Source: an uncultured delta proteobacterium
GTDB taxonomy: Bacteria > Desulfobacterota > Binatia > UBA9968
Assembly (NCBI GenBank): GCA_963811315.1
Contig: CAWERH010000013.1
Span: 134,123-198,122 of the forward strand
Direction: 5' to 3'
DNA length: 64,000 nucleotides
Shown: positions 15,383-50,056 of the stretch, one piece after another
Layout of the letters: the number at the start of each line of letters is the position of its first letter
Numbering within the stretch: position 1 is the first letter of the stretch
Position numbers and translations under genes: made by a program
Notes under the pieces: generated by a model
The model's database searches: none
Told to the model about the DNA's origin: nothing
The model's input: only the letters and a program-made list of their open reading frames with translations

Positions 15383-15577
15383 GATTTCTCCCTCCGGATT
15401 TCGTATGCGCTTGCAGCGTGCATCGTCGTGCCATCATATGCCAATGCTGAGAAGCGAGTGTCAAGATAAGATTCACGCCGTTGAATCGCCGCGCCAATGT
15501 CACTTGACAGTGTCGAGCGATCCGCACTAACGTCGCGTCAGTTTCGACATGCCTCAGTTGAAATGGGAGGAACTCCG

Positions 15578-16662: not shown

Positions 16663-16777
16663 TCTTGTGCTGTTGGCACATCGTGCCTAGACTAAGTTGG
16701 TTTCGCTCACTACAGCCTACTCAACTCACATGGTATTTTCCTGGTAATACAAGCCAACTAGCGAGGAGGTGTTTGCA

Positions 16778-17903
16778 ATGCGGGTTATCGATGCCGACGG
16801 TCACGTCGAGGAAAATCTCGATACTTTTAGCGACAAGTATCTCGATCCAGCGTTTCGCGCGTTGCGTCCGCGCGTGACGGCGGTGGACGGTCTCGTTTAC
16901 TGGGTCATCGACGAGCAACTTTATCCACGGCGCGTTGGGCCCGGCTGCCATAATCTTGGTACGCCGACAAACTTCAACGGCCAGCTCGCGGCGCACACCC
17001 AAGGCAAAACCGATAGCATCGGCAGCATGGAACTGAGCGATCTCACCGCCCGCCTCACGGCAATGGACGAGGAAGACATCGCCATTCAGGTGATCTATAC
17101 CACGCTGTTTCTGGCCTATCCGTTAACGAAGAACGTCGGCCTCGGCAGCGCGATCACGACATCCTACAACCGCTGGATGGGCGACCGCCTTTCCGGCCAC
17201 CCGCGCATCAAATGGTCGGCGGTGGTCAATCTGGACGACGTCGCCGCGGCGGTCGGACAAGTGCACGAAGCCAAGAAACTCGGCGCGGTGTCGGTCATGG
17301 TGCTCGGAACCGCCGGCGACGACATGCTCGATCATCCCAGGCTCTTTCCTTTTTACCAGGCGCTGTGTGAAGAAAATCTCGCGCTCGGCGTCCATGTCGG
17401 CTGGTCCTGTCCGTCGATCAATAATCTCTACTCGCACATCTACCCGTCCGGCGTCATCGCGTTTCACGTGCCGCTGCTCATGGCTTTCACCGCGTTGATC
17501 AGCGGCGGAGTGTTGGATCGCTTCCCGGATCTTCGTCATCGTTTTTCTCGAAGCCGGTTGCCAATGGGTGCCGTTCATTCTCGAACGCGTGCATCACCGC
17601 TACAAAAACCAGGGTTCGACGTTGAGGAAGTTTTTGCCCCAGACCGCGCCGATTCAGAAACTGCCGGTGATGGAATACATCAAACGCGGCAATATCTTTT
17701 TCAGCACCGAAGTCGAAGACGAAATTTTGCCCAATGTGCTCAAGCTCGCCGGTGAGGGCCAGGTCATTTTCGGCAGCGATATGCCGCACGGCGACCGCGA
17801 GCGTTGCGCCGCGCGCATGCTCCAAGAGCGCACGGATATCAGCGAGTCGGCAAAAGCGAGTATTCTCGATACGAATCCTGCGCGGCTTTACGGCATTGCA
17901 TAA
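16778..17903 (+). CDS. Amidohydrolase-2 family protein, frame-shifted near 17550
   Basis: MRVIDADGHVEENLD... (GGAGG RBS, ATG 16778); C-terminus ...QVIFGSDMPHGD... in 17568..17903 frame. Confidence 0.7.
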
Positions 17904-18101: not shown

Positions 18102-19189
18102 GCCGTAAAGATGGCGGGCGTTTTCGCATAAGATCTTTTCGACGATATGAGGCGGCACGTCTTCCCGGGCGCGCAGGTTCTTGACGAACTCCGGTTCCTT
18201 CGACGGATCATTATGACCGTAATCCGAGCCGATGACGATGATGATCCTCGCCGATATAGGTGAGCAGATGCGGCAATTCTTCGTCGGCCTCGCAGGCGAT
18301 CCAGAACCGATAGTCGCGAAACAAATCCTGCGGATTCTTATTCTTTAAATCCGCGCGCACCGACCGCCGCAGCACGTGAAAGATGTAGGGCACCCAGCTC
18401 GCGGCCGCTTCGATGAAGCCGAAACGGAGCTTGGGAAACTGCTCGGGAATACGATTGGCGACCAGATCCCGGAATGCGATCACCGGCAGAACGCGATTGT
18501 GGGCAAAGGTGTGATTGCGCTCGACGTCGAACGGCTGCATCAGGTAGCGGCTCCCCGAACCGGTATGGATGCAGATCGTTAAATCGAGCTTTTCGGCCAA
18601 GCGCGTAGATCGGCAAGAAATACGGGTTGTCCAGAGTCAGATTGCCTTCCATGCCGCGAAAGAAACACTCCCACCGCGCCCTGCTCTTTCGCCCATTTCA
18701 TTTCCACCAACGAGGCCTCTATATCCCGCAGCGGCAAGATCGCGACCCATTTGAGCCGCTCCGCCGCCTTGGCGCAGGCATCGGCGATGAAGCGGTTATA
18801 GGCGCGGCACAGGGCGGTCTCGAGCTTCGGATCGTCGGTGAGATAGACCAGAAACAGCGTCGGATAGATCACCTGAATCTCCACACCGAGCTTGTCCATG
18901 TCTTTTAATCGCGCTAACGGATCGGTCAGTTCCCGCACGCCGAGATGAATATCGCCCCGCCCCGATTCTTTTTTTGCGCCGATGGCGTGATCAAGCTGTA
19001 ACTCGCCTTCCCCGCCGGCTTGGGAAAAATTTCGCCGTCGATGAGCCAAAACGCATTGCGCTCTTTGTACCAGGTGTCGTCGGGGATCTTGGCCAGCACC
19101 GGACGGCGCGGATACATTTCTTTGTCGATATAGCTCCACATCGCTTCCGATTCGGCGATGTGCGTGTCCGCGTCTAAAACTCCGGGCAT
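18102..19189 (-). CDS. Amidohydrolase-2 family protein, at least 3 frameshifts
   Basis: MPGVLDADTHIAESE... start ATG 19189; pieces in 18926..19204, 18579..19139, 18211..18600 and a final ...IIVIGSDYGHNDPS...LYGVA* ending TAA 18102-18104. Confidence 0.65.
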
Positions 19190-19276: not shown

Positions 19277-20272
19277 TTAGCGCTTAAACTTGTCGATGAA
19301 ACCGCTCTTCTTGATTTCGTCGAGGACGCTCGAGTCCAGGAGTCGCAGACTTTCGGGCGTCTGACCTTTGGCTTTCGGGGTGGTGGCCGCCACCTGAGAC
19401 AGAATAAACTCCAAGCCCTTGCGGTCCGGCATCACCATCACGTCGCTGCCGTGTTTCGCCAGATAATACTCGTAGCTGATGTTGGCGTCTTCGCCGTCGA
19501 CACGAATATATTTCTTGATGAGCTGCAGGCCCAGCGCCTTATCGTTCTTGACCGCGAAATAGCCTTCGATGATCGCCTTCATGGCGTTGACGATCTTGCC
19601 GCGGTTCGCCTCCAAGTAACTGCGCCGGACAATGAAACAGTTCTGCGGAAACGGCACGCCGCTCTCCGCCAGGTCGATCAATGAATTCATCTTGTGCTCG
19701 CGGATGCCCATGGTCGTAAGGGGCTCGGCCAAAAGCGTGGCATGAATCGTGCCGTTCATCAGCGCGGCATAACGGGTCATATTGCCGCCGACCTGGACAA
19801 TGGTCACGTCTTTTGGGTTCAGCCCGAGTTTTTCCAACGCCACTTGCGTCGCGTAGTCCGATGCCGAGCCGAAGCGGCTGATCGCGATGCGTCTGCCCTT
19901 CAAATCTTCCGGGCGTTTGATCTCGGGACGAACAAGAAGCTTATTGGGGATAAAATTCATGCCGCCGGCGATAATCGTCGTATCCGCGCCTTGAAGATTC
20001 GCCGTGATCGCCAGCGCACCGGTGGTGAACACGATCTGCAGCTCGTTCGCCAGCAAGGCCTGCATCGCCGGCGTGCCGCTTTCCAGCGCTAGATATTCGC
20101 CATCGAGTCCGTACTTTTGAAAGATCTTTCTCTCGTAGGCCGCCCAAACGACGGCATGAACCGCCGTCGAAAATCCGCCGCTGGCGACGCGAAATTTTTC
20201 CTGCGCGGCGGTTCGATCCACGTTGGCCGCTAACAAGCTCACCGCAACCAACAGACAGCAAAATAGTTTCAA
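19277..20272 (-). CDS. NMT1/THI5-like ABC-type periplasmic substrate-binding protein
   Basis: Signal peptide MKLFCCLLVAVSLLAANVDRTAA; SsuA/NMT1-like fold sequence, 331 aa. Confidence 0.85.
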   Translation of the reverse strand: MKLFCCLLVAVSLLAANVDRTAAQEKFRVASGGFSTAVHAVVWAAYERKIFQKYGLDGEYLALESGTPAMQALLANELQIVFTTGALAITANLQGADTTIIAGGMNFIPNKLLVRPEIKRPEDLKGRRIAISRFGSASDYATQVALEKLGLNPKDVTIVQVGGNMTRYAALMNGTIHATLLAEPLTTMGIREHKMNSLIDLAESGVPFPQNCFIVRRSYLEANRGKIVNAMKAIIEGYFAVKNDKALGLQLIKKYIRVDGEDANISYEYYLAKHGSDVMVMPDRKGLEFILSQVAATTPKAKGQTPESLRLLDSSVLDEIKKSGFIDKFKR

Positions 20273-21588: not shown

Positions 21589-21944
21589 AAGTTCTGGTAG
21601 ATTGTCTCGCAGTTTGCTGTAAATCCCGCATCAATAAAAATTCCTTGAATTGTTTTGGCCAATCTATAGAACTCGGACGTTACGGTCAAAGCGATTTGCT
21701 GAAGTTTTTCCAAATTCTTAAATCATTTTAACTAACGATAGGATCATTCTTAGCCCTTGATTCGTCGCATCCGAAGTATTTCCACGCAAGTGTTTCGGCC
21801 GCGTGGCACGATCAATCGATTTTGCCGAGACATTACAGAGCGCATTTTCGGCTCTTGTTGCGGTTTACACTCGCGCGCGTTCGGTTTATATCGAATTCAG
21901 CTAGGCGTAGCCCAACAGCGCCAGGTCGAAAAGGAGTTCATTTC

Positions 21945-23042
21945 ATGCTCTTCTTGACCAACGAACACATTCAGCAAGTCCTCAACATGGAAACCTGCAT
22001 CGCCGCCATGGAGGATGCGTACGGCGAGATTAACGAGCAACGCGCCGGTTATCGCCCGCGCATCGATTTCTACGTGCCGGAGGAGCCGCATTATTATCGC
22101 TGGGGCACGATGGAGGGCGCGTCACGCAAGCTCGGTGTCTTCGCCATTCGAATGAAATCCGACATGCTGGCCTGGGAAGAGCAGGACGGTTTTATGGTCG
22201 AAGACAAATATTGCATGGAACGCGGCCGTTACTGCGGGCTGATTTTTTTACTGAGCACGCGCAACGCGCAACCGCTTGCGCTGATGAATGACGGCTATTT
22301 GCAGCATATGCGGGTCGGCGCTTGCGCCGGCTTGGGGACCAAATACCTCGCCCGAGAAGATTCGACGGTGCTCGCGATGATCGGCTCCGGCGGCATGGCA
22401 CGGACTTACGCCGAAGCCATCAAACTCGTCCGGCCCATCGAAGTCATGCGCGTGTTCAGCCCGACCAAAAATAATCGCGAGGCTTTCGCCGCCGAGATGA
22501 CCGACAAACTCGATATCGAGGTGATCGCCGTCGACTCTCCGGAGAAAGCGCTCAGGGACGCCGATATCGTCTCGCTGACGACGGATTCTCTCGTGCCCGT
22601 GATCAAGGCGGACTGGCTCGAGCCGGGAATGCACATTAATAACGTGCGCAACAACGAGGCCGGCCCCGACGTGCTCGCTCGCGCCGATGTCCGTGCCCGC
22701 CTCGGCACGTCGACGCTGTTCGCCGACCGTAATGCTCCGGAAGTCGTCACCGGCAGCGACGGCATGTTCGGTTACATCGCCGGCAATGCCGCCGAAAAGA
22801 GGAAGATCCCGAAATCACCACATATGGAGATCGACAATCCGAATATCACGACGATCCCCGACATCATGGCCGGACGCCGGCGCGGCCGGATCAACGACCG
22901 GCAAATCACTTTTCTCAACAATCAAGGAACCCAGGGATTGCAATTTGCCGCCGTGGGCGCCGCAGCGTACAACCTGGCAAAAGCCAAAGGGCTGGGGCAC
23001 CCGCTGCCGCTCGAATGGTTTACGCAGAATATACGAGATTAG
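21945..23042 (+). CDS. Ornithine cyclodeaminase / mu-crystallin family protein
   Basis: MLFLTNEHIQQVLNMETCIAAMEDAY...; Rossmann MIGSGGMAR; AAGGAG RBS 8 nt before ATG 21945. Confidence 0.85.
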   Translation: MLFLTNEHIQQVLNMETCIAAMEDAYGEINEQRAGYRPRIDFYVPEEPHYYRWGTMEGASRKLGVFAIRMKSDMLAWEEQDGFMVEDKYCMERGRYCGLIFLLSTRNAQPLALMNDGYLQHMRVGACAGLGTKYLAREDSTVLAMIGSGGMARTYAEAIKLVRPIEVMRVFSPTKNNREAFAAEMTDKLDIEVIAVDSPEKALRDADIVSLTTDSLVPVIKADWLEPGMHINNVRNNEAGPDVLARADVRARLGTSTLFADRNAPEVVTGSDGMFGYIAGNAAEKRKIPKSPHMEIDNPNITTIPDIMAGRRRGRINDRQITFLNNQGTQGLQFAAVGAAAYNLAKAKGLGHPLPLEWFTQNIRD

Positions 23043-23167: not shown

Positions 23168-23962
23168 ATGTCCACCCTTCGCTACATCGCTTATCTCGCA
23201 GAAGAGCCGGCGGAACTCGTCGACTTTTACCATCGCTTCCTCGGAACCGAGGAGCTGGGCCGTTCGCCCGAGGGCGATATCACGATCACCGACGGTTTTT
23301 ACAATCTCACTTTCTTCAAGAAGCGCCCCGCCCTCGGCGAGATGCAGATGGACACCGGGTTGCACCATATCGGCTTGCAAGTCGACAATCTCGAAGAGGT
23401 GAAGGGACGCTTCCTGAAATTGAATCCGCGCGGCATGATCATTCAGGAACCGGGCGACCTCCAGCATGGCGAAATTCGCCTGCATGATCCCGAGTGCCGT
23501 CCGGTCTCCGTCTCAACCTCCACCTTCGGCGTCCCGGCGAGCAAAGAGAAGCAGTTCCCACGCGTCCGCCATATCGCCTACAATGCGCTAGATCCTGAAA
23601 TGATGTTACTCTTCTACACGCAGGTGTTTGGCCTGCGCGAAATTCCATCGAGTTATCTGCGCCGCCAACAAGGGCGCGGCAATCGGTTCTGCGCCGATGG
23701 CAAAACCAACCTGGCGATCCATCCGTTCTACAACAAAATCGAAGGCCACGAAGCCAAATACGGCATCAATCACATCGGCTTCCTCACCAACTGCATGCAA
23801 GCCACCATGGCCGAGCTCAGCAGCATTCTCAAAATCGTGCCGCGCCCGGCAAATCGTCCCTACTCAGAATTCCGCTTCCGCGATATCGAAGGGAATGCCT
23901 TAGACCTCTCGCAGACCAAAGGCTGGGAAGTTGACGTCGATAAGTGGGAAACCGCAGCATGA
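23168..23962 (+). CDS. Two-domain VOC (glyoxalase/extradiol-dioxygenase fold) protein
   Basis: MSTLRYIAYLAEEPAELVDFYHRFLG... and second module HIAYNALDPEMMLLFYTQVFGL...; AAGGAG RBS. Confidence 0.8.
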   Translation: MSTLRYIAYLAEEPAELVDFYHRFLGTEELGRSPEGDITITDGFYNLTFFKKRPALGEMQMDTGLHHIGLQVDNLEEVKGRFLKLNPRGMIIQEPGDLQHGEIRLHDPECRPVSVSTSTFGVPASKEKQFPRVRHIAYNALDPEMMLLFYTQVFGLREIPSSYLRRQQGRGNRFCADGKTNLAIHPFYNKIEGHEAKYGINHIGFLTNCMQATMAELSSILKIVPRPANRPYSEFRFRDIEGNALDLSQTKGWEVDVDKWETAA

Positions 23963-25026
23963 GAAAACCTCGGGCCGTGGTGTATTGGAGTGATGGAGCA
24001 ACGGGCAAGGGAAAAGATGATTGCGCGTTGCCTGTTGTCAGTTTGCTCTTTCTGATTGCCGTATTGCTTGGTTCAACGCCGACCCTTTTTGCTGCTGCGA
24101 CGCTGGAGAAACTCACCATCGGCTGGAGCGCCATCGCCGGCTCGCAAGCACCGTTTTGGATCACCAAGGAAGCCGCGCTTTTCGAGAAGAACGGCCTGGA
24201 CGTGACAATGATTTATGTCGACGGAGGATCCAAAGCGACCCAAGCGATGATGTCGGGCGATATGCCGATCGCCCAGGTCGGCGGCAACGCGCCGGTAGTG
24301 GCACGGCTGCGCGGCGCCGATATAACGCTGATTGCTGGACTGCTGAATGTGCTGGCCTACAGCATGGTCGTCTCGCCGGAGATCAAGAAACCGGAAGATC
24401 TCAGGGGCAAGAGACTTTCCGTCAGCCGCTTTGGCTCGAACTCGGACTACGCGACTCGCAAAATTCTACTTAAGTGGGGACTCCGGCCCGACATCGACGT
24501 GGCCGTATTGCAGATTCCCGGCGGCCAACCCGCTCGGCTCGCCGCGATCCAGTCGAAACAGGTCCATGGCATGGTCGCGCAACCGCCGGTGACAAATCTT
24601 GCGCGCAAATTCAACTTAGGAATTATCGCCGAGCCAGCAGATTTCGGCGGTGCCTATCCGACGACACCGGTGGCGGCGCGCATGTCGTTTCTCCGTGAAA
24701 AGCGCGACCTGGCGCGCAAGTTTACCCGAGCATTGCTGGAGGGCATTTACGTTTACAAGACGCAGAAGGATTTCAGTAAGAAAGTGATCGCTAAGTACGT
24801 CAAGACCGACGATAACGACGCACTGGAAGACAGCTACCGGTTTTTCTCACCCCTGGTTCCGCAGAAACCCTACCCTTCGCTCGAAGCCGTCAAGGAAGCC
24901 CTCGCCGAGCTCGGCGAAAAAGACCCAAAGGTCCGATCGGCAAAACCCGAAGATTTCGTCGATGGCAGCCTAATCAGAGAATTCGACGACAACGGCTTTA
25001 TCGACGGGCTCTATAAGCAGCGCTAA
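23959..25026 (+). CDS. NMT1/THI5-like ABC-type periplasmic substrate-binding protein
   Basis: Hydrophobic signal LPVVSLLFLIAVLLGSTPTLFAAA; start uncertain (ATG 23959, GTG 23977/23980); NMT1-like body. Confidence 0.8.
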   Translation: MRKPRAVVYWSDGATGKGKDDCALPVVSLLFLIAVLLGSTPTLFAAATLEKLTIGWSAIAGSQAPFWITKEAALFEKNGLDVTMIYVDGGSKATQAMMSGDMPIAQVGGNAPVVARLRGADITLIAGLLNVLAYSMVVSPEIKKPEDLRGKRLSVSRFGSNSDYATRKILLKWGLRPDIDVAVLQIPGGQPARLAAIQSKQVHGMVAQPPVTNLARKFNLGIIAEPADFGGAYPTTPVAARMSFLREKRDLARKFTRALLEGIYVYKTQKDFSKKVIAKYVKTDDNDALEDSYRFFSPLVPQKPYPSLEAVKEALAELGEKDPKVRSAKPEDFVDGSLIREFDDNGFIDGLYKQR

Positions 25027-36098: not shown

Positions 36099-36845
36099 TC
36101 ATCCAACGAAATGATAGCCGCCGTCCACATTCAGCAGCTGGCCGGTCATGAAGTCACTGTCCGGCGACGCTAAATAAAGCACGGTGCCGACCAGATCGCC
36201 TTCGACCTGCGAGCGTTTGAGGCTGCGCTGTTGAGCACGGACTTTCTCGTATTCCGGATCGACCTGCCGACCTTCGGTGACGACGAAGCCGGGGCTCACC
36301 GTGTTGACGCAAATATTCCAATCGCCAACTTCACGCGCCATGGCGCGGGTCATGGCAATGATTGCGCCCTTGGAAGTCACGTAATGGATATAGTTGGGAT
36401 TGCCGGTTAATGCGACGTTGGAAGAGATGTTGATGATCTTGCCGTGTTTCTGCTTCTGCATGTGCGGCACCACCGCTTTGGCGCAGAGCCATGAACCGCG
36501 CACATTGACCGCCATAGCTTTGTCGAACTCATCAACGGTCATTTCCCAGAACGGCCCTTTCCAAACCGTCATGAAATAGGCCGCATTGTTGATTAAAATA
36601 TCGACGGTGCCGAATTGCTTGACCGTCTCGTCGACCATCGCCTTGACGCTCTCCTCGTTCGACACATCGCAGGCCATGCTGATCGCCGTGCCGCCCATGT
36701 CCTGGATCGCCTTGACCATGGAATCTGCGCTGGTGATATCGGGGAGACAAAGGTTCGCGCCTTCTTTCGCAAAAGCGGTCGCATAGGCTTTGGCGATTTT
36801 GCCGCCACCGCCGGTAATGATCACCGACTTATTTTCGAATCGCAT
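36099..36845 (-). CDS. SDR family NAD(P)-dependent oxidoreductase
   Basis: ITGGGGKIAKAY glycine-rich motif; NISS...YVTSKGAI (Y-x3-K). Confidence 0.85.
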   Translation of the reverse strand: MRFENKSVIITGGGGKIAKAYATAFAKEGANLCLPDITSADSMVKAIQDMGGTAISMACDVSNEESVKAMVDETVKQFGTVDILINNAAYFMTVWKGPFWEMTVDEFDKAMAVNVRGSWLCAKAVVPHMQKQKHGKIINISSNVALTGNPNYIHYVTSKGAIIAMTRAMAREVGDWNICVNTVSPGFVVTEGRQVDPEYEKVRAQQRSLKRSQVEGDLVGTVLYLASPDSDFMTGQLLNVDGGYHFVG

Positions 36846-36903
36846 CGCCCGTCCTTCCGCTTTAATTTCAGTGTCGGCCTCACATAACATCGCCTCTAAA
36901 AGC

Positions 36904-36930
36904 TGTCAATAAAATGTGAATTCATTGACA
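36904..36930. promoter_or_regulatory. Perfect palindrome TGTCAAT-N13-ATTGACA in divergent promoter region
   Basis: tgtcaataaaatgtgaattcattgaca; between SDR start (36845, minus) and NMT1-like gene (37240, plus). Confidence 0.5.
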
Positions 36931-37239
36931 CCCGAAATGCGCGTCCCTATGATCACGGTAATTCTATGGCGCATCCATCGCGATGGTCGAGCAGGCGATG
37001 CAGCGACCCGATGATTTTGGAGCAGGCTTACAAATTTAGCGCCGCCGACTATCTCATGAAGCCCTATCCTTCGATCAAGAGCAGCGAATTTACTTTGCAA
37101 GATCTCGGACGTAACAAACCGGGCATTGCCGAGTTGAACCCGCTGCGTTTTGCCGATATGGATTTGCTCAGGAGCTTGAAGCCAGCGGATTCATCGATCA
37201 CCTATATAGCAAGAAAATCTAGCTAGAAAGGCTATTTTT

Positions 37240-38199
37240 GTGGCTAAACTAAAGTTAACTATTGCTTTTGATAAGTACGACTATCTGCAACCGTTGCGCG
37301 CCGGCGAAGTCGAGGTTGAAGGTATCGATCTCAACATCATCACTGTGGAGAGCGGCATTCGCCACGAACGTATGTTTCACTATGGCGAATACGATGGCTG
37401 CGAGTTCTCCATGTCGTCCTATCTGGTCGCCCGCGGCCAAGACATCGACTGGCTGCAAGCCATCCCTTTCTTTCCGCGGCGGATGTGGGGCCACAAGTTT
37501 TGTTTTATTAAAGCCGGCTCAGGAGTGAAGAAGCCTGCCGACCTCAAAGGTGGCCGGATCGGCCTGCGCAGCTATGAAAACACGCTGGCGCTAGTCACCA
37601 AAGGCATGCTGATGAACAGCTACGACCTCGGTGTCGGTGATGTTACTTGGGTGATCGTCAATAAGGAGCATGTCGGTTTCAAGCTACCGGCGAGCATTAA
37701 AGTCGAGTTCGTCGAAGGCAAACGGAAACTGGAAGACTTGCTCGTCGAAGGAAAAGTCGACGCGGAAGTCGAACCGGATCTGCCGCAGCGCTGGATTCGC
37801 GGCGACGGCAGCGTCGAGCGGCTGTTCCCCGAATTCGAAAACGAAGAGCGCGACTATTACAAACGCACCGGTATTTTTCCGATCATGCATCCGGTTGTAG
37901 TCAAGAAAGAAATTCTCGACCGGGATCCCTGGGTGGCAACCAGCTTGTACGAAGCCTTGATGAAATCGCGCAAAGCCTACAACGAATTCATGGAGCAACC
38001 GCATCGTTTGAGCTTTGCCTGGGGCCGCTCTTATCTCGAAGAAGAAAGAAAATTCTTCGGCAAGGACCCGTTTTATCAAGGGCTGAAAGAGAACTACAAC
38101 GACGTGCAGAATTTGATCAAATTCGCCGGGCAGCAAGGCATGCTCGGCCGCGACTTGACCGTCGAGGAATTGTTCACGGAGAATACTCGGCGTACATAA
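37240..38199 (+). CDS. Cytoplasmic NMT1/THI5-like domain protein (no signal peptide; fold shared with 4,5-dihydroxyphthalate decarboxylase-type enzymes)
   Basis: MAKLKLTIAFDKYDYLQPLRAG... no N-terminal hydrophobic segment; 319 aa. Confidence 0.6.
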   Translation: MAKLKLTIAFDKYDYLQPLRAGEVEVEGIDLNIITVESGIRHERMFHYGEYDGCEFSMSSYLVARGQDIDWLQAIPFFPRRMWGHKFCFIKAGSGVKKPADLKGGRIGLRSYENTLALVTKGMLMNSYDLGVGDVTWVIVNKEHVGFKLPASIKVEFVEGKRKLEDLLVEGKVDAEVEPDLPQRWIRGDGSVERLFPEFENEERDYYKRTGIFPIMHPVVVKKEILDRDPWVATSLYEALMKSRKAYNEFMEQPHRLSFAWGRSYLEEERKFFGKDPFYQGLKENYNDVQNLIKFAGQQGMLGRDLTVEELFTENTRRT

Positions 38200-38317
38200 C
38201 CGAAACGCAACTTGTCATCCTGAACGAAGTGAAGGATCTAGATTCTTCGTCGCTTCGCTCCTCAGAATGACAATCGGCCTATAACGCAGCAAACACCGCT
38301 TAAAACAGGAGGAAGCC

Positions 38318-39412
38318 ATGACTGACTACCGAATCATCGACGCCGACGGACATGTGATGGAGCTCGACAGTGAGCTGCGTGAGTTCATCGGCCCACCGTA
38401 CAAAGATTTGGAATGGCACCAGAGTTATTCTTTCTGGCCGGGCCTGACGATGGACGGTTTTCTCCGCTCGCTGCGCAAGCCGGGCGGGTGGGCCGGTGGC
38501 GGCACCGGACCGCACGCCAAGGATTGGCTGAATTTTCTCGATATCAACAAGATCGAGCTGACGGTTCTCTACCCCACTCAGGGACTCACCCACGGCGCGA
38601 TCCAGGACAAAGATTGGGCGATCTGCATGGCCAAGGCGTACAACGACTGGCTCTATCACAAGTTCATGAAAGTGAGTCCGCGTTTGGTCGGTGTCGCCCT
38701 GCTGCCGATCCAGGATATTTCTGAAGCGGTCAAAGAACTGCGCCGCGCGGTGAACGAATTGGGCATGGTGGGCGCCGTGCTGCCGGCCGTCGCTCCCGGC
38801 GGCCGGCTCTACAGCGGGCCCGAGTTCTATCCGCTCTGGGAGGAGGCGCAGAGGCTCGACGTGCCGGTCTCGACCCACGGCGGTTTGAGCATGCCGGCGC
38901 TCGGCCTCGACGCGGTCAATAATTTCACCATCGGCCACACGCTGGAACATCCCTTTGCGCAGATTCGCCAATTCACCGCGCTGATATTCGAAGGCGTCTT
39001 CGAGCTCTTTCCCAATTTCAAATTTGGTTGCATCGAGTGCGGCGTCGGCTGGGTGCCGTATATGATGGACCGGATGGACGAGGAGCAAGAACGCAAGGGC
39101 CACTACTCGCCGCGCTGCAAGTTGAAACCGAGTGAGTACGTCAAGAAAGGCAATATCTACTTCGCCGTCGAAGTCGAAGAATCGGCCTTGCCGCTCGCCG
39201 CGCAAGTAGCCAACGACAACGCGCTCATCTGGGCGTCGGACTATCCGCACGAGCGCGACCAGCGCGACTTCAGCCATGACATCCCGAACCTGATCAATCG
39301 CAAAGACGTTAGCGACGAGCTCAAGCGAAAAATCTTCTGGGATAATCCGCTGCGCTTCTACCCGCGCCTCAAAGCGAGAGTGGAAAAAGGTGAAGCCAAG
39401 GCAGTGGCGTAA
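38318..39412 (+). CDS. Amidohydrolase-2 family protein (intact)
   Basis: MTDYRIIDADGHVMELDS...WASDYPHER...; AGGAGG RBS; 364 aa uninterrupted. Confidence 0.9.
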   Translation: MTDYRIIDADGHVMELDSELREFIGPPYKDLEWHQSYSFWPGLTMDGFLRSLRKPGGWAGGGTGPHAKDWLNFLDINKIELTVLYPTQGLTHGAIQDKDWAICMAKAYNDWLYHKFMKVSPRLVGVALLPIQDISEAVKELRRAVNELGMVGAVLPAVAPGGRLYSGPEFYPLWEEAQRLDVPVSTHGGLSMPALGLDAVNNFTIGHTLEHPFAQIRQFTALIFEGVFELFPNFKFGCIECGVGWVPYMMDRMDEEQERKGHYSPRCKLKPSEYVKKGNIYFAVEVEESALPLAAQVANDNALIWASDYPHERDQRDFSHDIPNLINRKDVSDELKRKIFWDNPLRFYPRLKARVEKGEAKAVA

Positions 39413-39432
39413 TCGATCCGCTCTGAAATAGC

Positions 39433-39469
39433 AAAGAGGCTCGCGTCCGAAAACGCGAGCCTCTTTTTT
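39433..39469 (+). terminator. Rho-independent terminator
   Basis: aagaggctcgcg-tccgaaaa-cgcgagcctctt followed by TTTTTTG. Confidence 0.65.
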
Positions 39470-39609
39470 GTGCCGTTTGGGTTCTTTGCGGTAATCGATC
39501 TTGTTTCTGTTTCTTTCGTTGAAAGGGCAATAAATTGCGCCCTACGTATGGCGCGAAATCAATAGTGAGCAGGCTGGATTGTTGAAAAGACCGACAGTGC
39601 CAAAGTTGC

Positions 39610-40335
39610 CTACGGCATCTCTTCCAACAGCTTGCCGAAGCCTTTTACTTTCTGCCGCAAATGCAGCCGTTTCTGCACCGCCCAGACGCGGGCCGGCACC
39701 GCGTGAACGACGGGCACCTGCAAATCCTCTTCGAGCATGTGAATGATATCGAGACAGCGCCAGCCGGTGCCGAGCATGTAAATGCCATCGGCGCCGGGAT
39801 TTTTGAGAAACGCCTGCCGGGTATGCCCGTAGATTTCCGTCGAGGCCAAACGCCCCACGTCCGCGAAATCGACTTTCATCCCAGCCATCGCCAACACTTC
39901 GAAACCGGCTTCCTGGAAGTAGCGGGTAAACATATCGTTGATGCTGCCAACGAAGTAGGTCACACCGACAAATTTTTTCACCCCAAGCGCGCGCAACGCC
40001 TCCACTTGAGTCTGCGCCGCGGTCACGATGGGGATTTTAAATTCCGCTTCCCACTCTTTGACGATCTTTTCTTCGCCCTTGAAGCCATGAACCATGAACG
40101 GCGGCGCGCCTTCGGGATGAATCAGATCGACGCCTTCCTTGGCAAGCTCGTCGACTTTCTCGTGCACGGCATTGAGCGCGGCGCGGAATTCGTCTTCGGT
40201 GCCGCGTTTGAAATCGAGATAGACCGGTACGACGCCGACGCCTTCGGGTAACAAGCGGATAAATTCTTCCAGCGAACCGGGCCGATGGGTCGGCTTAACA
40301 ACGCCAACCACTCCACGCCAACTGGTAAAGACCAT
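39610..40335 (-). CDS. Asp/Glu/hydantoin-racemase-superfamily protein (arylmalonate decarboxylase / maleate isomerase-like)
   Basis: 241 aa, two-domain racemase-like pattern with conserved Cys (GTGWRCLD); family assignment from overall pattern. Confidence 0.55.
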   Translation of the reverse strand: MVFTSWRGVVGVVKPTHRPGSLEEFIRLLPEGVGVVPVYLDFKRGTEDEFRAALNAVHEKVDELAKEGVDLIHPEGAPPFMVHGFKGEEKIVKEWEAEFKIPIVTAAQTQVEALRALGVKKFVGVTYFVGSINDMFTRYFQEAGFEVLAMAGMKVDFADVGRLASTEIYGHTRQAFLKNPGADGIYMLGTGWRCLDIIHMLEEDLQVPVVHAVPARVWAVQKRLHLRQKVKGFGKLLEEMP

Positions 40336-40359
40336 AAACTCGTTCCAATCGTTTCAAGG

Positions 40360-40436
40360 GTTCCAATCGTTCCATTCGTTTCAGAGACTCGATTCCAACC
40401 ACTTGGAACCTCTGAAACCATTGGAACAATTGGAAC
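40360..40436. repeat. Nested inverted repeat element: 27-bp imperfect arms (40360-40386 / 40410-40436) around an inner TTCCAA-ccac-TTGGAA hairpin; preceded by direct copy cgttccaatcgtttcaag (40341-40358)
   Basis: About 7 copies of GTTCCAA(T)/ATTGGAAC in both orientations within 100 bp; between UbiD-family stop (40445) and AMDase-like start (40335). Confidence 0.8.
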
Positions 40437-40444
40437 CGTCTTCG

Positions 40445-41914
40445 TTATTTAAATACCTGCGGAAACTTCGCTTTGAGCTGCTGACGTACGTTCTCCGGCA
40501 CGTCCACGACTTTGGGAAATTCTCCTTTGAGTTTTCGGTTGTAAGGCTGGCACGCGTCAATCAAAATCCGATTGTTGAAATTGCCCGGCAAAAACATCGG
40601 ATCGCGTCCCGATGACCAGGCCTTCTGGACGATGTCGATGTCGGTGACCGGATCAAAGCGTGTGCCCATCGCCCACAGAACCTGATCCATGTCCGAGCAG
40701 TCCACGTCGTCGTCGACGACCACCGTCCACTTGCCGTTGTACGCGCCGGCCATGCAATTACTTGCGACGTGGAGCACGTTACGCGCGTGACCGGGATAGC
40801 GCTGGCGAATTTGTATCGCGGTAAAACGGGTGGCGGGCGCGCCTTCATGGTTCCACACGCCGAGAATGTCGGGCAGCCCGCAGGATTCCAGCGCCTTCCA
40901 CACCTCGGCGGCGCCGGCGATGCCTTTGAGCAGTCCGGTCTCGTCGACCGGTTTGTGCTGCGGCGCGCAGGTGAGAATCGGATCGTTGCGGTACATGACG
41001 GTTTTGACGTTTAAATAGGGTCGCGGCACGACGTCGTCGGAATAGTAGCCCATCCATTCGCCGAACGGCCCTTCGGGTTGGCTTTGACCGGGCACGGCTT
41101 CGCCTTCGATGACGATCTCGGCATCGGCGGGAATTGGGAAACCTGTGAACGGACCCTTGACGACTTCGACAGGTTCGCCGCGGATGCCGCCGGCAAAGTC
41201 ATACTCGGAAATGCCGGATGGCAACGGGCTGGCCGAAAGCAAATAGAGCAGCGGATCTTGACCGCAGACGATAGCGAACTTGCAGCTTTGGCCGCGCTCG
41301 AAATATTTGTCACGATGAATCCGGCCGTGTTTACCTTCGGTGATCTGGCAACCGATGGTTTTGCCGTCGTAAACTTCACAACGATAGGCGCCGAAGTTGT
41401 ACCAGTCGGCGTCGGGATCTTTGGTAATGCACATATCGGCGGTGCCGATGTAACGGTGCGTGTCGAGTTGGTGGTGAATCGGCACGGGGAGCTTGAGCAC
41501 GTCGACTTTATCGCCTTCCAGGACATTTTCGAAGATCGGCCCGGTCTTGACCATTTTGGGCTTGAGCATCTTCATGTCGGTCATGACGTGATGGTACGCC
41601 TTGACGATGTCGGCTTTGTGCTCGTATTCGAGCGGTAGTCCCAGGGTGAGCGCGACCCGCTTGATCGTCGAAAACTGGCCGTAGAGCGTTCGATAGCCTT
41701 TGGCATACCCGGGGACTTCGTCGAACAGGATCGCGGGCGCTTTGCCTTTGCCGCCTTCGGTGAGCATCTGTGTGACCGCGCCCATCTCGCGATCCCAGTG
41801 GGCTCCACTGACCTTTTGCAACTCGCCCAGCTTTTCGACCTGGTCAATCCAATCGCGCAATCCTCGATAGCTGACAGCGCTCTGGGATGCCCCTATCCTC
41901 TCGGGTCTTGCCAT
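40445..41914 (-). CDS. UbiD-family (prFMN-dependent) reversible decarboxylase
   Basis: 489 aa; full-length colinearity with UbiD/Fdc1-type decarboxylases. Confidence 0.85.
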   Translation of the reverse strand: MARPERIGASQSAVSYRGLRDWIDQVEKLGELQKVSGAHWDREMGAVTQMLTEGGKGKAPAILFDEVPGYAKGYRTLYGQFSTIKRVALTLGLPLEYEHKADIVKAYHHVMTDMKMLKPKMVKTGPIFENVLEGDKVDVLKLPVPIHHQLDTHRYIGTADMCITKDPDADWYNFGAYRCEVYDGKTIGCQITEGKHGRIHRDKYFERGQSCKFAIVCGQDPLLYLLSASPLPSGISEYDFAGGIRGEPVEVVKGPFTGFPIPADAEIVIEGEAVPGQSQPEGPFGEWMGYYSDDVVPRPYLNVKTVMYRNDPILTCAPQHKPVDETGLLKGIAGAAEVWKALESCGLPDILGVWNHEGAPATRFTAIQIRQRYPGHARNVLHVASNCMAGAYNGKWTVVVDDDVDCSDMDQVLWAMGTRFDPVTDIDIVQKAWSSGRDPMFLPGNFNNRILIDACQPYNRKLKGEFPKVVDVPENVRQQLKAKFPQVFK

Positions 41915-42118
41915 GAAATCCTCCTGGAAGTAAGACTTTTAACCTCGGTAAAACACCTTGTTTAGTGCGGTGGCTCCCACCTTACGATTGGCCCTACCCC
42001 TTGTCAAGAAATGGCGCCGCTTGCGCGATCAACTCGGATGGTGGTATGAACGCCGCTCGTCGACGGCTCTTAGTAAATCGGTAAGCAAAATTTTCGGCAA
42101 AGTTGGCGTGAGGTTTCC

Positions 42119-42617
42119 ATGACGGGTCGAACAACGTACGATAGACAACTCCGGACCATCGGTCAGTCCCTCGAAGCCCAGCGCATACAGTTATTCGAAC
42201 TAACCCGCCAAGGGGAACGTTATGTCGTCAAAGGCGAACCGGAGAAAGAAACCTCGCTGCTCGCGACGCTGCGCCAGTGGCAAAAGCGCGTGCGCAGCGA
42301 AGGCATCAACAACTCGCTGAGCTTTCACCGCTCCGATCTCGAGCAGCTCGATCAATCAGGGATGCGCTAATCGTGCCAAGACCAATCAACTTTCCGACTT
42401 TCACCGGCTGCCGAATACTTTGCGAACCGTGGGCGCTTACTTGGAACTGAACGGCGCTGAGCTGATCGAGCTGCACAAAAAAGAACTCAGCGTCACGATC
42501 CTCTCGCGCAATCAAGCCGGGCATCCCAAACTGGAAGAACGCAGCGTCGCGTCGCTTTACGATATCTTCGTGCGACTGCACGGAAGGCGCGCCGAGAAAA
42601 TGCGCAGTTCGCGCTAA
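42119..42617 (+). CDS. Hypothetical protein with two tandem ~60-aa repeats, apparently frame-shifted near 42365
   Basis: LRTIGQSLEAQRIQLFELTRQGERYVVKG vs LRTVGAYLELNGAELIELHKKELSVTILS; ORFs 42119..42370 and 42420..42617 in different frames. Confidence 0.35.
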
Positions 42618-42856
42618 TCATCGCGATCAATATCGTTTGGGTCCGTGTATTGTTTGTTCGACAAATCCTAACAGTCCATCGTCGACAATATTCTGCCTTC
42701 TCCTTCAACATTTTTTTTCAGCTCGTCAAAAGACGACTTGGAGATCACGCGATCGAACTGCGAGCGGTAATTGTTGATGATGCTGATGTTTTGCGACAGC
42801 AAGATCACCGCTATTGGACGACACGACACTCTCATGCCTCCATTCTCCTAAACATG

Positions 42857-43231
42857 CTATTGAACAAATTGATCGGACAGCAGAATCGCCCAGACAGTCG
42901 CGGCAAGAATAATCGCAGCAAGCACCGCCGCCGAGCCGATATCTTTGGCGCGTCCGGATAACTCGTGGCGCTCCCGGCCGATCCGGTCCACCACCGTTTC
43001 CAATGCTGAGTTGAGCAGCTCGACGACCACGACTTGGAGACAGCTGCCGATCATCAAAGCCCGCTCTACCGCGCCTCTGCCGAGCAGCCACGCCGTCGGC
43101 AGCGCCACAATCAAGACATAAACTTCGTAGCGGAGCGCCTGCTCGGTTTGCCAGGCCTGGCGCAAACCCCGGGAAGAGTAGCAGGTCGCGTTCACCAAGC
43201 GCTGCACCGGGCCGCCGTCGTTTCCGTTCAT
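42857..43231 (-). CDS. dgkA: Diacylglycerol kinase (prokaryotic DgkA family)
   Basis: 124 aa, three TM helices, ...ERALMIGSCLQVVVVELLNSALETVVDRIG... DAGK_prokar signature region. Confidence 0.8.
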   Translation of the reverse strand: MNGNDGGPVQRLVNATCYSSRGLRQAWQTEQALRYEVYVLIVALPTAWLLGRGAVERALMIGSCLQVVVVELLNSALETVVDRIGRERHELSGRAKDIGSAAVLAAIILAATVWAILLSDQFVQ

Positions 43232-45687: not shown

Positions 45688-48600
45688 TTACCCCTGTTGA
45701 GGTAGATCCAGGTTTTGCAGACGGCTCAATAGCTCACCAACCAATCCGACATCAATGGGAATGCCGTCGCGATAGGCGATCGCCTGATTGGAATAGGGCG
45801 AAACCCGCCCGTCCGCCGTCAAAATTCCCAGCAGATTCAAGGGGTCGGCCGCCGCCACGAGGACCGGACGCTGCACCTGCGCTTGCCGGCGTCCGGCGCG
45901 CAACTTGTCGAGGGCCTCAGGCAACGCAAACTGCTCGCCGACGAAACCATTGACAAAACGCCCGCCGCGGATTTCGCCGCGCGCTTCCAACAAGCGAAGA
46001 ACTCCCAATAACGCGCGCCACGGCGGCAAGTGCGTTTCGCGGGCGAGCAAATCGCGAAACACCACACCGTAACGCCGCAGCAGTTGCCGCGCGTGCTGTT
46101 CGACGATCGCTTCGGGATTTTTTTCCATCGGCGCAAACTGGTTGCGCCACAGCGACCAGCGCCCCACGGGCATGATTCGTTCAGGACTTTTGCCACCCGC
46201 AATGACCCGCAGCCTCCGCCGCTCCGTGCGTTTATGATCGGGGGTCAATAACACACGCAGACCGGCAATACCGTCGCCGGTCGCGAGCCCGTGCGCGACC
46301 AGTTGCCAGAGCGCCTCTTCGACTTTGACCTTCAACAAACCGGTCGCGCGCGCGACGTCAGCAAGAAACGACGCGCCATGCCGGTCAAGATGGCGCGCCA
46401 CTTCCAGCGCCATCGGCGACAAAGACTCGATTTGATCGAAGCGCAAAGTCATGGGCGCCAGATAAAATCCGAGATCGTCGCGCAGCACGAATGCGATCGG
46501 CGCGTTGCGCGCCGGCGCTAATAAACGTTTCGCGCGCCGGTTAAGGGATTTATCCACGGCTGACGACGTAGCCGCAGTCAGCTCGACACCAAGTCTGCCC
46601 CAAGCGACGACGCCGGCCAAGCACAGGTGCTCGAGATCCGCCGGGTCGTACTGCTCGACGCGCGCCGGAAGAATATGCTGTTCCCAGGCGGGCGCCGGCA
46701 GTTCCAATCCCTGTAACTGGCGAATCACCTGCAAGACGCCGTCGCGGCCGCGCAGCTGCGAACCCGGCGTTACATGCTGCCAAGCGAGCAGGAACTTCAT
46801 AAACTCTTGAGCTGAAACCGGTTCAATTTCTTTGCGCATCCGGCCCAGGGTTAGCCGATGGATGCGCGCCAACAAAGCACGCTCGCACCACTCGACCTCG
46901 CCGTCTTGGCTGCGCCCGGTGAACTCGCCGCGCAGCACCACGCCGGCGCTTTCCAAGGCCAACAGCGCCGCGTCGATTTGACTGCGCGAAATCCCCAGCC
47001 GTGAAGCCAGCGTATTTGCGGTTATCGGCCCGCTCACTTCCAACCAGCCTTGAACAATTTTTTTGACCGCGTCTTCCGCCGACTCGACGGTTTCGGCAAA
47101 ACCGAGCGGCAGTTCGATCGGTGGCTTGAGCGCTATTTCCGGCAAGCACTTGCGGATCAAATCAACTCGCTCCGCTGCAACAAATGCCTGGCGTTCGCCA
47201 TCGACGGTGATCCACTGGGCCGCGCTCGCCCGCCGATCTTCAATCAACGCTTGCGCCAGCGGTCGCCAGTCAGGACGAAAATCCACCGGCAACAAACCGA
47301 TCCCCAACAAAAGATCGTGCAGCTCGTCGACATTGCGCACTTCCGGCCAGGCCTGCCTGGCAACTTCCGCGATGGCCGCGGCATCGAGCCGGCCGAACTC
47401 GCGGCCGAGCCACGGATCGACCCGCCGCAGCGACACGGCACGGGCACGCCGCTCTTCCAAGGGCGCGTCGTCGAGAAACGCATACGGATTGGCATTGAGG
47501 ATTTCGTGCGCCATCGGCGACGGCGCCGGCGTGTCGATGGCGAGCGTCTCGATCGCGCCGCTCTCGATGCGGCTGAGAATATTCGCCAGACCATCGACAT
47601 CCATGGCTTCGTGCAAACAGTCCCCCATGGTTTCTTTCACCAGCGGATGATCCGGCAGTTCCACCGGGCCGCTGCGATTGTCCTGGCACATGACCTGCTC
47701 GGGAAAAACCGCCGCGAGCAAATCTTCCGCGCGCATGCGCTGCAATGCCACCGGGACTTTCTTTGCCGCCGCTATGGCGCAACAGAGCCAGCGCGCGCGA
47801 CGCGTTCCAGCGCCAGCGATTGGTAAACATCGGCGAGACCAAAGCGGCCTGAATGAGATTTTCTTCCAGGATCGCCGGGCGCAGCATCAGAAACACATCG
47901 CTGAGCGGAAACGAGTGCTGCTCGACCAGCGAGATGCAGATGCCGTCATCCGTCGCCGCGGCCTGCAACTCGCGATCGAAGCTCACGCAAAAGCGCTTGC
48001 GCAGCGCCAATCCCCAGGCGCGATTGATCCGCCCGCCCCAGGGCGAATGGAGGATCAACTGCATGCCGCCGGCTTCGTCAAAGAAGCGCTCGGCGATAAT
48101 CCGCTCTTGGGTCGGCACCGTGCCGAGCATCGCGAGTGTATCCGCGACATAATCAACGATCTGTTCCGCCGCCGCTTGCGACATGGCGACTTGCTCAATC
48201 AGCCATTGCGCCGCCGCGGCGCGGTCCGGCAGGAGTTGCATTACGGCCTGCCGCAAATCCGCGACCGCTTTGGACAGCTCAAGAGTGCGCGCCGGCGCCT
48301 CGCCCATCCAGAATGGAATGGTCGGCGGCAGGCCCTCGGCATCGTCGACCCAAACTTTGCCGGCGCCGACCCGGCGAATCCGCCAGGAGCGATTGCCGAG
48401 CAGAAAAATATCGCCGGCGAGACTTTCGATGGCAAAATCTTCGTGGACTTTCCCGACGAAAGTTTCCGTGGAGAATTCCACCACATCGTAGTCGGCGGTA
48501 TCGGGAATCGCGCCGCCGTTGGTGATCGCGGTCAAGCGCGCGCCGCGGCGCGGCCTGAGCATGCCGTGGATCCGATCTCGATGGATGTAAGCGCCGCGCC

Positions 48601-50056
48601 GGCTGCGCCGGGTTTCCACGCCCTCGCTAAGCATTTCCAGAAGCTGCTCGAAATTCTTCCTGCGGCAGATTTCGATACGGATACGCGCCGCGGACCAGCT
48701 GCCACAAGGCGTCCTCGACTGATGCCGTCCTCTGTGCGGTTCGAGTTTCGCTCGTCCTGACCGTGCTTGCAGCCGCGCGCCAAGCTCGCCACGGTTGCGA
48801 CCATTTGTTGCGCCAGCACGTCGAGCGGTTTTTCGGCGACGGTCAATTTATCCAGCTCGCCCTGTTTCACCGCGCGAATCGCCGCCACCGACTGCACCAG
48901 ATCATCGCGGGTCAAGGGATAGAAGATCCCCTTGGGAATCGCGCCGAGCCAATGACCGGAGCGGCCGACGCGCTGCAACAGCACCGCCAAGTTTCGTGGC
49001 GACGCCGATATGGCAGACCACATCGACGTGACCGATGTCGATGCCCAGCTCCAAGGATGCGGTGGCGACGACCACCGGGTATTGCCCGGTCTTGAGTTTC
49101 TCCTCGACCTCCAGCCGGGTTTTGCGCGACAAACTGCCGTGATGGGCGCCCACCTTGCCGTCGCCCAATCGCTCGGTCAGCTGATGCGCCACCCGCTCGA
49201 CGAGCCGCCGCGTGTTGACAAAAACCAATGTGCTCTTGTGCGCCCGGATTTGCTCAACCAACCGATCGTATACCGCCGACCAGATATCCTGCCGGATGAT
49301 CGGCCCCAATTCCTCATCCGGCACTTCGATGCGCAAATCCATTTCGCGCCGGTGTCCCGCGTCAATGATGGTGCAGTCGGGTGCGCCGTCCCTGTCAATG
49401 CCACGGCTCCCGACCAACAACCGTGCGATATCCTCGATCGGCTTTTGGGTCGCGCTCAAACCGATCCGCTGCAGCGGCCGCGCCGCCAGCGCTTGCAGTC
49501 GCTCGATCGACAATGACAGATGGGCGCCGCGCTTGTCCTGGGCGACGGCATGAATCTCATCGAGGATCACCGTTTCTGTGGTCCGGAGAAATTCCCGGCT
49601 GCGCGACGCGGTCAATAAAATGTAGAGCGACTCCGGCGTGGTGATCAGAATGTGCGGCGGCCGGCGCAGCATCAATTGGCGCTCGCGCGCCGGCGTATCG
49701 CCGGAGCGTACGGCGACGCGAATCGTCGGCAGCAAAATTCCCTCGCGCCCGGCAAGAGCATAGATCTCCGCAAGCGGTCCCTGAAGATTGCGAGCGATAT
49801 CGTTGCCGAGAGCCTTTAGCGGCGAGACATAGACCACGCTGGTGCGCTCGTCCAAGGCGCCCTGGAGGGCGCGTTGGATCAAGCGATCGATGGACCAAAG
49901 AAACGCGGCCAGAGTTTTGCCCGAACCGGTCGGTGCGGCGATCAGCGTCGACTTCCCGGCGGCGATCGATTGCCAGCCCAACTGCTGCGGCGTTGTGGGA
50001 TTTTGAAAACGCTGGACAAACCAGCGCCAAACCAGCGGGTGAAAAAAATCTTTCAA
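45688..50056 (-). CDS. lhr: Lhr-type large ATP-dependent helicase, split by at least 3 frameshifts
   Basis: N-terminal DEAD/DEAH module APTGSGKT, DEIH, helicase C; remaining ~1000 aa in ORFs 48532..49023, 47270..48634, 45688..47751. Confidence 0.8.

Follow-up and report, generated by a model that had tools for sequence, protein, structure and literature searches.

A UbiD-family gene paired with a cysteine-less arylmalonate-decarboxylase-fold gene at a three-unit locus of an uncultured Binatia bacterium

Gene layout of the locus

The stretch of DNA analyzed here, called the window throughout, comprises 64,000 nucleotides (64 kb) from an uncultured delta proteobacterium of the Binatia (contig CAWERH010000013.1 of assembly GCA_963811315.1), and our subject is a set of five genes that adjoin one another between positions 36,099 and 41,914 (Table 1). 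They encode a short-chain dehydrogenase/reductase (SDR), a protein of the NMT1/THI5-like fold, an Amidohydro_2 protein, a protein with the fold of arylmalonate decarboxylase (AMDase) and maleate isomerase, and a UbiD-family protein. A preliminary description of the region had seen in these genes a cluster of four adjacent folds known to include decarboxylases, lacking UbiX, that might define a pathway for a dicarboxylic aromatic substrate. Pfam and PDB profile searches of the five proteins confirmed the families it had named at the superfamily level.

The five open reading frames (ORFs) belong to three transcription units on two strands. The SDR gene is a unit of its own, divergent from the NMT1-like gene; the NMT1-like and Amidohydro_2 genes follow one another on the plus strand, with a promoter-like match 5' of the former and a hairpin followed by a run of T closing the unit; and UbiD precedes the AMDase-like gene on the minus strand. 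The second and third units are convergent, meeting in a 197-bp spacer. A single five-gene operon is ruled out by the strands, the terminators, and missing conservation. Thus, the genes do lie side by side as described, but as three units on both strands, in a neighborhood of folds that is not beyond chance within the window: the 64 kb contain roughly five loci of the Amidohydro_2 type and four genes for NMT1-fold proteins, and because these two families are expanded there, chance adjacency is likely. Where a genome has many members of both families, adjoining "decarboxylase folds" are no evidence of a pathway.

We read the region as a lineage-specific juxtaposition of three independent units, rather than as one decarboxylation pathway, in which the UbiD gene and its AMDase-fold neighbor form an operon of their own. 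The three-unit architecture and the linkage of these two genes we hold with high confidence; the explanation as a whole, including what the operon may do, we regard as reasonably probable.

Table 1. Genes and sequence elements at and upstream of the locus (window coordinates; aa, amino acids; nt, nucleotides)
Feature	Coordinates	Strand	Basis or remark
SDR oxidoreductase, 263 aa	36099..36890	-	Pfam adh_short_C2 PF13561, 209 bits
Sigma-70-like promoter match	36925..36953	+	TTGACA, 17 nt, TATGAT; 11/12; consensus match only
NMT1/THI5-like-fold protein, 319 aa	37240..38199	+	PDB 9jp7 alignment; Pfam NMT1 20.2 bits
Amidohydro_2 protein, 364 aa	38318..39412	+	PF04909, 119 bits
Intrinsic terminator hairpin	39433..39469	+	AAAGAGGCTCGCG, 8-nt loop, CGCGAGCCTCTTT, then T run; direct reading of sequence
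Terminator-like hairpin 3' of AMDase-like gene	39537..39554	-	Hairpin
AMDase/maleate-isomerase-fold protein, 241 aa	39610..40335	-	Amdase PF17645, 87.5 bits
Palindromic spacer between UbiD and AMDase-like gene, 109 nt	40336..40444	-	~9-nt GTTCCA / TGGAAC units
UbiD-family PhdA-like (de)carboxylase, 489 aa	40445..41914	-	UbiD_N, UbiD, UbiD_C domains
c6, ~169 aa, no Pfam family	42116..42590	+	Divergent from UbiD; in 40 related loci
Diacylglycerol kinase DgkA, housekeeping	42857..43231	-	PF01219, 112.6 bits; between Mo enzyme gene and UbiD
Xanthine-dehydrogenase-family Mo enzyme large subunit, 752 aa	43236..45494	-	Pfam Ald_Xan_dh_C, MoCoBD_1, MoCoBD_2

The UbiD gene and its linked partner

The UbiD-family protein has the domain architecture of its family, with PF20695, PF01977, and PF20696 all over their gathering scores, and it passes TIGR00148 (274 bits against a cut-off of 244.85). 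Its best PDB match is PhdA (7pda; E = 1.6e-92, residues 16-481). PhdA has a conserved R159 and a catalytic E269 (PMC10850782), with which R178 and E286 of the window protein align. In these features the protein has all that one would look for in an active enzyme dependent on prenylated flavin mononucleotide (prFMN), and it probably decarboxylates, reversibly, a carboxylate with an aromatic or heteroaromatic ring. None of the NCBIfam equivalogs was reached, whether for PpcB (301 bits, cut-off 469), VdcC (252 bits, cut-off 650), UbiD proper (NF008175; 168 bits, cut-off 788), or the menaquinone type (TIGR03701; 199 bits, cut-off 496).

The last two scores bear on the notion that this UbiD is simply a housekeeping decarboxylase of ubiquinone or menaquinone biosynthesis whose neighbors are irrelevant. 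Joint Genome Institute (JGI) pipelines do label its orthologs "4-hydroxy-3-polyprenylbenzoate decarboxylase," and a methyltransferase with the UbiE-family Pfam domain follows the gene pair in 17 relatives. Yet both housekeeping equivalogs fall far under their cut-offs, and E. coli UbiD (2idb) matches at 4.5e-44, a much poorer value than that of PhdA. We consider this the least probable of the alternatives, and very improbable in absolute terms.

Evidence that the UbiD gene has a regular companion comes from its relatives. We assembled 88 related loci from contigs with five UbiD orthologs and from a UbiD scan of 185,579 species genomes, and searched them with all window proteins; most are from soil or groundwater metagenome-assembled genomes (MAGs) of Binatia or organisms named "delta proteobacterium," and the comparison covered 168 related loci in total. 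Where UbiD is at least 79% identical to that of the window, a downstream AMDase-like gene on the same strand is present in 35/35 loci with at least 4.2 kb of downstream sequence and in 44 of the 46 with at least 1 kb. When metagenome contigs were instead scanned with the AMDase-like protein, UbiD lay directly upstream in all loci with more than 300 bp of upstream sequence (72/72). The co-occurrence of UbiD and AMDase-like genes across genomes, which the preliminary description had offered as a check, therefore proved to be a very tight linkage. The two genes constitute a two-gene operon with UbiD first, and their pairing is near-obligate in Binatia-type soil MAGs. Across the 168 loci, this pair is the only conserved combination of the five genes. 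Both members are under strong purifying selection, with median omega values of 0.035 (UbiD) and 0.048 (partner) that are approximate because synonymous divergence (dS) is close to saturation. Protein clusters of the UbiD clade contain as many as about 1,800 sequences.

Some loci whose UbiD is about 80% identical have additional genes separating it from the AMDase-like gene. By sequence inspection only, these resemble DapA-like aldolases, rhodaneses, cysteine-dioxygenase-like cupins, and beta-propeller proteins, and they are too inconsistent across loci to serve as pathway clues. UbiD orthologs of 70-78% identity (L002-L007 and L071-L089, from alphaproteobacterial, Burkholderiales, and Chloroflexota MAGs) mostly occur without an AMDase-fold gene; in 14 of these loci a secreted solute-binding-like protein without a Pfam family follows UbiD instead, in most of them UbiD adjoins three-subunit molybdenum (Mo) enzymes of the xanthine dehydrogenase (XDH) family, and in L002 and L003 TctB-like and PrpF genes lie downstream.

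In the spacer between the two genes in the window, GTTCCA(A/G) is repeated three to four times along one arm and TGGAAC three to four times along the other; its RNA fold reaches -48.5 kcal/mol (z = -5.55), and it is present as a single copy in the window. A further 26 distinct spacers from relatives have the same palindromic element in this place. Another 28 distinct spacers measure 45 nt or less, mostly 21-27 nt, many of them with a ribosome-binding-site-like AAGGAG, and at some loci the spacer contains a different palindrome (CCCGCAAAGGCGCAAAG...). No covariation was detected in the spacer, and a comparison with known RNAs in Rfam gave only sub-threshold matches to miRNA hairpins. The element could be an mRNA-stability hairpin, an insertion resembling repetitive extragenic palindromes (REP) or miniature inverted-repeat transposable elements (MITE), or a protein-binding array.

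The preliminary description was right that the window contains no UbiX gene, as tblastn with E. coli UbiX returned nothing below E = 5; the probe sequence was checked as a member of Pfam Flavoprotein PF02441 (146 bits). It had treated this lack as notable, whereas no UbiX homolog occurs within the 6-10 kb flanks on either side in any related locus. In this UbiD clade ubiX is as a rule unlinked, and its absence beside ubiD is normal. We assume that prFMN would be supplied to UbiD by a UbiX encoded elsewhere in the genome.

The AlphaFold2 model of the partner is confident (pLDDT 94.1) and superposes on 4ix1, AMDase, and maleate isomerase with template-modeling (TM) scores of 0.84-0.89 (0.87 to AMDase 3dg9 of Bordetella bronchiseptica), which together with the match to PF17645 bears out the earlier assignment to an AMDase-like fold. 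AMDase is characterized by the proton donor Cys188 and a dioxyanion hole of T75, S76, Y126, and G189 (PMC4996985, Table 4). In the HMMER alignment to 3dg9, the partner has G189 at the position of Cys188, the thiol that defines EC 4.1.1.76; A77-P78 replace T75-S76, T190 replaces G189, and of the dioxyanion hole only the tyrosine is kept (Tyr127, equivalent to Tyr126). The second cysteine of isomerases and racemases occupies the position of AMDase Gly74, at which the partner has G76, so that the two catalytic, substrate-facing cysteines of maleate isomerase and of aspartate/glutamate/hydantoin racemases are replaced by G76 and G189. Its NCBIfam equivalog score is 85 against a cut-off of 225. On these grounds the likeness to AMDase claimed earlier extends to the fold but not to the catalytic thiols, both of which are glycine, and we infer that the partner cannot act as a thiol decarboxylase, isomerase, or racemase.

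This state is a property of a clade rather than of one sequence. In a family alignment built from representatives of 1.8 billion clustered proteins, the thiol-less condition is common to the nearer clade (36-67% identity, together with PDB 4ix1), whereas distant representatives retain one or two cysteines. An alignment of 27 clade sequences has G76 invariant and G189 conserved in at least 90%, and its invariant residues are solely proline, glycine, glutamate, and leucine. We also asked whether the partner might be a maleate isomerase serving the breakdown of a pyridine carboxylate, in a pathway like those for picolinate or nicotinate, and rejected this, as both cysteines are gone and no genes for ring-cleavage dioxygenases or amidases turned up.

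What, then, might the partner do? In the mechanism we propose, UbiD would carboxylate or decarboxylate an aromatic or heteroaromatic acid, and the cysteine-less AMDase-fold protein, made from the same operon, would serve that reaction by binding carboxylate, be it as an accessory subunit or in handling substrate or product. A carboxylate-binding accessory role suggests itself because the thiol chemistry of its fold is closed to the partner, and we advance it tentatively, at somewhat less than an even chance. That the protein is a hitherto unrecognized, dedicated partner of a soil-abundant PhdA-like UbiD clade, whether as accessory subunit or as a thiol-independent coupled enzyme, we put forward with still lower confidence.

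Nearly as likely as the carboxylate-binding role, though doubtful in itself, is that the partner is a true enzyme with non-canonical residues, such as a cofactor-independent decarboxylase, a tautomerase, or an isomerase, acting just before or after UbiD on the same metabolite. The tight operon linkage, strong purifying selection, and intact, confidently modeled fold would all be expected of such an enzyme; Tyr127 aligns with a dioxyanion-hole residue, and the absence of the gene beside UbiD orthologs of 70-79% identity suits a pathway step better than a subunit. The clade, however, offers no conserved Cys, His, Lys, Ser, or Asp as a candidate catalytic residue, its dioxyanion-hole T75, S76, and G189 being replaced by A, P, and T. 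We also know of no characterized member of the superfamily that works without a thiol.

Several observations weigh against our reading of the UbiD pair. Among UbiD orthologs of 70-79% identity with at least 4.2 kb of downstream sequence, only 2/24 are followed by an AMDase-fold gene on the same strand, and therefore enzymes of this type do not require its product as a subunit. No fusion of UbiD with an AMDase-fold protein was seen, and the linkage sample consists mostly of close relatives, in which the partner is 83-99% identical. In many loci, including that of the window, a hairpin of about 110 nt parts the two genes in place of translational coupling. As far as its sequence can tell, the partner may also have a non-thiol catalytic mechanism.

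The remaining units and the upstream neighborhood

The NMT1-like protein aligns over residues 1-318 with chain residues 21-345 of 4,5-dihydroxyphthalate decarboxylase (PDB 9jp7; E = 1.7e-36), and its Pfam NMT1 score lies slightly under the cut-off of 20.5 bits. Its ORF is maximal, beginning at the first start codon past a stop, and homology extends from residue 1; there is therefore no room for a signal peptide. The protein is by its sequence a cytoplasmic homolog of 4,5-dihydroxyphthalate decarboxylase, as the preliminary description had proposed.

Its neighbor, the Amidohydro_2 protein, had been described as a LigW-like decarboxylase, a likeness that holds at the level of the fold only. Its five best PDB matches are all amidohydrolase-related dinuclear oxygenases (AROs), namely PtmU3 (6e-33), 8sm9, 8sm7, SfbO (8sm6), and 8sm8, at E-values of 6e-33 to 4e-19, compared with 1.3e-15 for gamma-resorcylate decarboxylase and 1.5e-11 for LigW. 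AROs are defined by an N-terminal D-x-H on strand beta-1 and a C-terminal D-x-P-H-x-[D/E], and the characterized Amidohydro_2 decarboxylases are without the D-x-H (PMC13154177). The window protein has the first motif as D10-G11-H12, within a DADGH that is conserved in the orthogroup; its second motif reads D308-Y-P-H-E-R, in which D-x-P-H is kept and the final position is arginine. With D-x-H in place of the decarboxylase-type N-terminal motif, we set aside an assignment to the LigW/ACMSD group. The protein resembles an ARO that misses the final motif residue. Nearly all of about 100 full-length orthologs checked share D[YF]PHER. The motif filter by which the ARO superfamily was sized would therefore pass over the orthogroup of the window gene (38318-39412; orthologs P0391-P0510), which may be an unrecognized ARO-like branch. 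A minus-strand ORF at 38300-39277 (325 aa), considered as a possible amidohydrolase, has no Pfam match; the true gene overlaps it on the plus strand.

The window has further Amidohydro_2 loci at 9545-10365, 15497-16662, 16769-17891, and 18241-19139, several of which are split across frames (15497-16039 and 16027-16662 are one such case, 16781-17536 and 17547-17891 another); these broken paralogs are either pseudogenes or the product of indel errors in long-read assembly. Interspersed with the Amidohydro_2 loci are three secreted-type NMT1 genes (109-1365, 19277-20272, and 23944-25026), a gene with a Rieske domain (14429-15382), and a gene of the ornithine cyclodeaminase (OCD) family (21822-23042). 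The combination of NMT1, Amidohydro_2, and OCD genes is found again in L170 and L175.

The SDR carries the NNAA and YxxxK motifs of its family (INNAAY and YVTSK in the translation), and no NCBIfam equivalog scored at or above its cut-off for this protein.

These assignments, together with the comparative data, return us to the single catabolic pathway in which all five genes would take part in several non-oxidative decarboxylations of a dicarboxylic aromatic substrate. Each of the five folds has members in aromatic catabolism, the genes are physically adjacent, the NMT1-like protein is truly a homolog of 4,5-dihydroxyphthalate decarboxylase, and two distant UbiD loci (L003 and L077) have NMT1-like paralogs of 35-37% identity no more than 10 kb away. 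Against this stand the three transcription units with their convergent terminators and the likelihood of chance adjacency in a window in which both the Amidohydro_2 and the NMT1 family are expanded. Of the four supposed decarboxylases, two are not borne out, as the Amidohydro_2 protein resembles oxygenases and the AMDase-like protein is without Cys188. Moreover, no ortholog of the SDR or NMT1-like protein lies near UbiD in any related locus, where SDR paralogs are only about 30% identical, and the Amidohydro_2 ortholog appears near UbiD only in the near-identical strain L090, as the 3' end of the gene. Six Amidohydro_2 orthologs lie in varying contexts, with an NMT1-like ortholog (69% identical) directly upstream only in L175, where the pair occurs without UbiD; L175 and the UbiD locus L063 are different contigs of one MAG (JACQUW01). 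Because contexts vary and the two pairs stand on separate contigs there, we regard the NMT1-like/Amidohydro_2 pair and the UbiD pair as independent modules. The comparative data largely refute the five-gene pathway, which we consider very unlikely.

Upstream of UbiD lies the large subunit of an XDH-family Mo enzyme, whose best PDB match is the alpha subunit of 4-hydroxybenzoyl-CoA reductase (HcrA, 1rm6_A; 6e-87). Many close relatives have an ortholog of this subunit (70-87% identity) upstream of UbiD and on its strand, in the same orphan arrangement; no homologs of Fe-S (Fer2) or flavin adenine dinucleotide (FAD) subunits occur anywhere in the window. One could therefore suppose that UbiD works with the Mo enzyme in a phenol/hydroxybenzoate-type route, or in hydroxylation and decarboxylation of (hetero)aromatic acids, and that the AMDase-fold protein is incidental. 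In keeping with this, phenylphosphate carboxylase beta is the best NCBIfam model for the window UbiD, and the UbiD orthologs of 70-78% identity lie beside three-subunit XDH-family enzymes, with genes that sometimes overlap or are close (L002, L003, and L007). However, the phenylphosphate carboxylase score is under its cut-off, and the Mo gene is separated from UbiD by dgkA and, in relatives, by an MlaC-like gene and the divergent c6. The Mo enzymes beside the distant UbiD orthologs are only about 30% identical to that of the window, which also lacks the Fe-S and FAD subunits, and no PpcA, PpcC, PpcD, phenylphosphate synthase, or CoA ligase was seen. We think this route improbable. There are nonetheless hints that the substrate class of the UbiD enzyme comprises hydroxylated (hetero)aromatics, because the orphan Mo subunit is nearest to 4-hydroxybenzoyl-CoA reductase alpha, PpcB is the best (sub-cut-off) NCBIfam model, and the orthologs of 70-78% identity have as neighbors XDH-type enzymes and a secreted solute-binding-like protein; we treat these as leads only.

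Several genes in this neighborhood appear damaged in the window, and the apparent frameshifts are perhaps assembly errors. The reading frame of c6 is broken in two, and comparison with L090 shows three single-base indels. Of the MlaC-like gene only the 3' end is left (42690-42797, minus strand), between dgkA and c6; here the window is short by about 450 bp compared with L090 (384-836) and other relatives, which keep a full MlaC-family gene of about 203 aa. Farther upstream, an Lhr-helicase-related ORF (45688-47751, minus strand, 687 aa) is overlapped at its upstream end by a second ORF (47270-48634, minus strand, 454 aa). In relatives, the median length in the matching ORF cluster is about 1,332 aa, and the window copy looks like a split gene.

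Relation to known systems

Our findings fit into a broader interest in UbiD enzymes, which are sought as catalysts of reversible carboxylation and decarboxylation, and for which partner proteins and activation in vivo are incompletely understood. Taken singly, the proteins described here add to families already known; what we regard as modestly novel is that a UbiD and an AMDase-fold protein without thiols are conserved as a pair. Our literature search found no paper that joins UbiD with maleate isomerase, arylmalonate decarboxylase, or Binatia. If the two proteins do cooperate, the pair would represent a new kind of UbiD partner and a new two-component prFMN-dependent (de)carboxylase system, and would give a first function to the thiol-less branch of the Asp/Glu-racemase superfamily, including PDB 4ix1.

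On the plus strand, the NMT1-like protein is like 4,5-dihydroxyphthalate decarboxylase 9jp7 in size, in its full-length alignment, and in having no signal peptide, although the similarity is moderate only. Its gene is not adjoined by genes for phthalate dioxygenase or dihydrodiol dehydrogenase, and its recurrent neighbor is the oxygenase-like Amidohydro_2. That protein shares D-x-H and D-x-P-H with the AROs PtmU3, SfbO, AibH2, and DitZ, from which it differs in the last residue of the second motif (Arg, not Asp or Glu), and no Rieske ferredoxin gene adjoins its gene.

For the partner, AMDase 3dg9 and maleate cis-trans isomerase (2xec and 4fq5) provide the same two-domain fold, of which it keeps the Gly74 and Tyr126 equivalents but not the isomerase cysteines. 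The nearest solved relative is OPAG_01669 of Rhodococcus opacus (4ix1), a structural-genomics protein that also has glycine at the Cys188 position (E = 3.6e-17; TM about 0.84) and is only 26% identical.

The closest characterized counterpart of the window UbiD in this comparison is PhdA, the phenazine-1-carboxylate decarboxylase of Mycobacterium fortuitum. The two have the NxGxYR and EGPFGE motifs in common, yet they are too distant for the same substrate to be assumed, and the window has no prenyltransferase gene nearby. To our knowledge, PhdA has no AMDase-fold partner. Dedicated partners are familiar from other UbiD enzymes, such as the phenolic acid decarboxylases VdcCD and BsdCD and the phenylphosphate carboxylase PpcABCD, in which the partner is either a small D subunit (about 75 aa) or a subunit resembling phosphatases; we know of none (VdcD/BsdD, PpcC/PpcD) with the Asp/Glu-racemase/AMDase fold. 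In VdcCD/BsdCD, in PpcABCD, and in the window alike, a catalytic UbiD gene stands beside a gene for a small non-UbiD partner, and it is in the fold of that partner that these systems differ.

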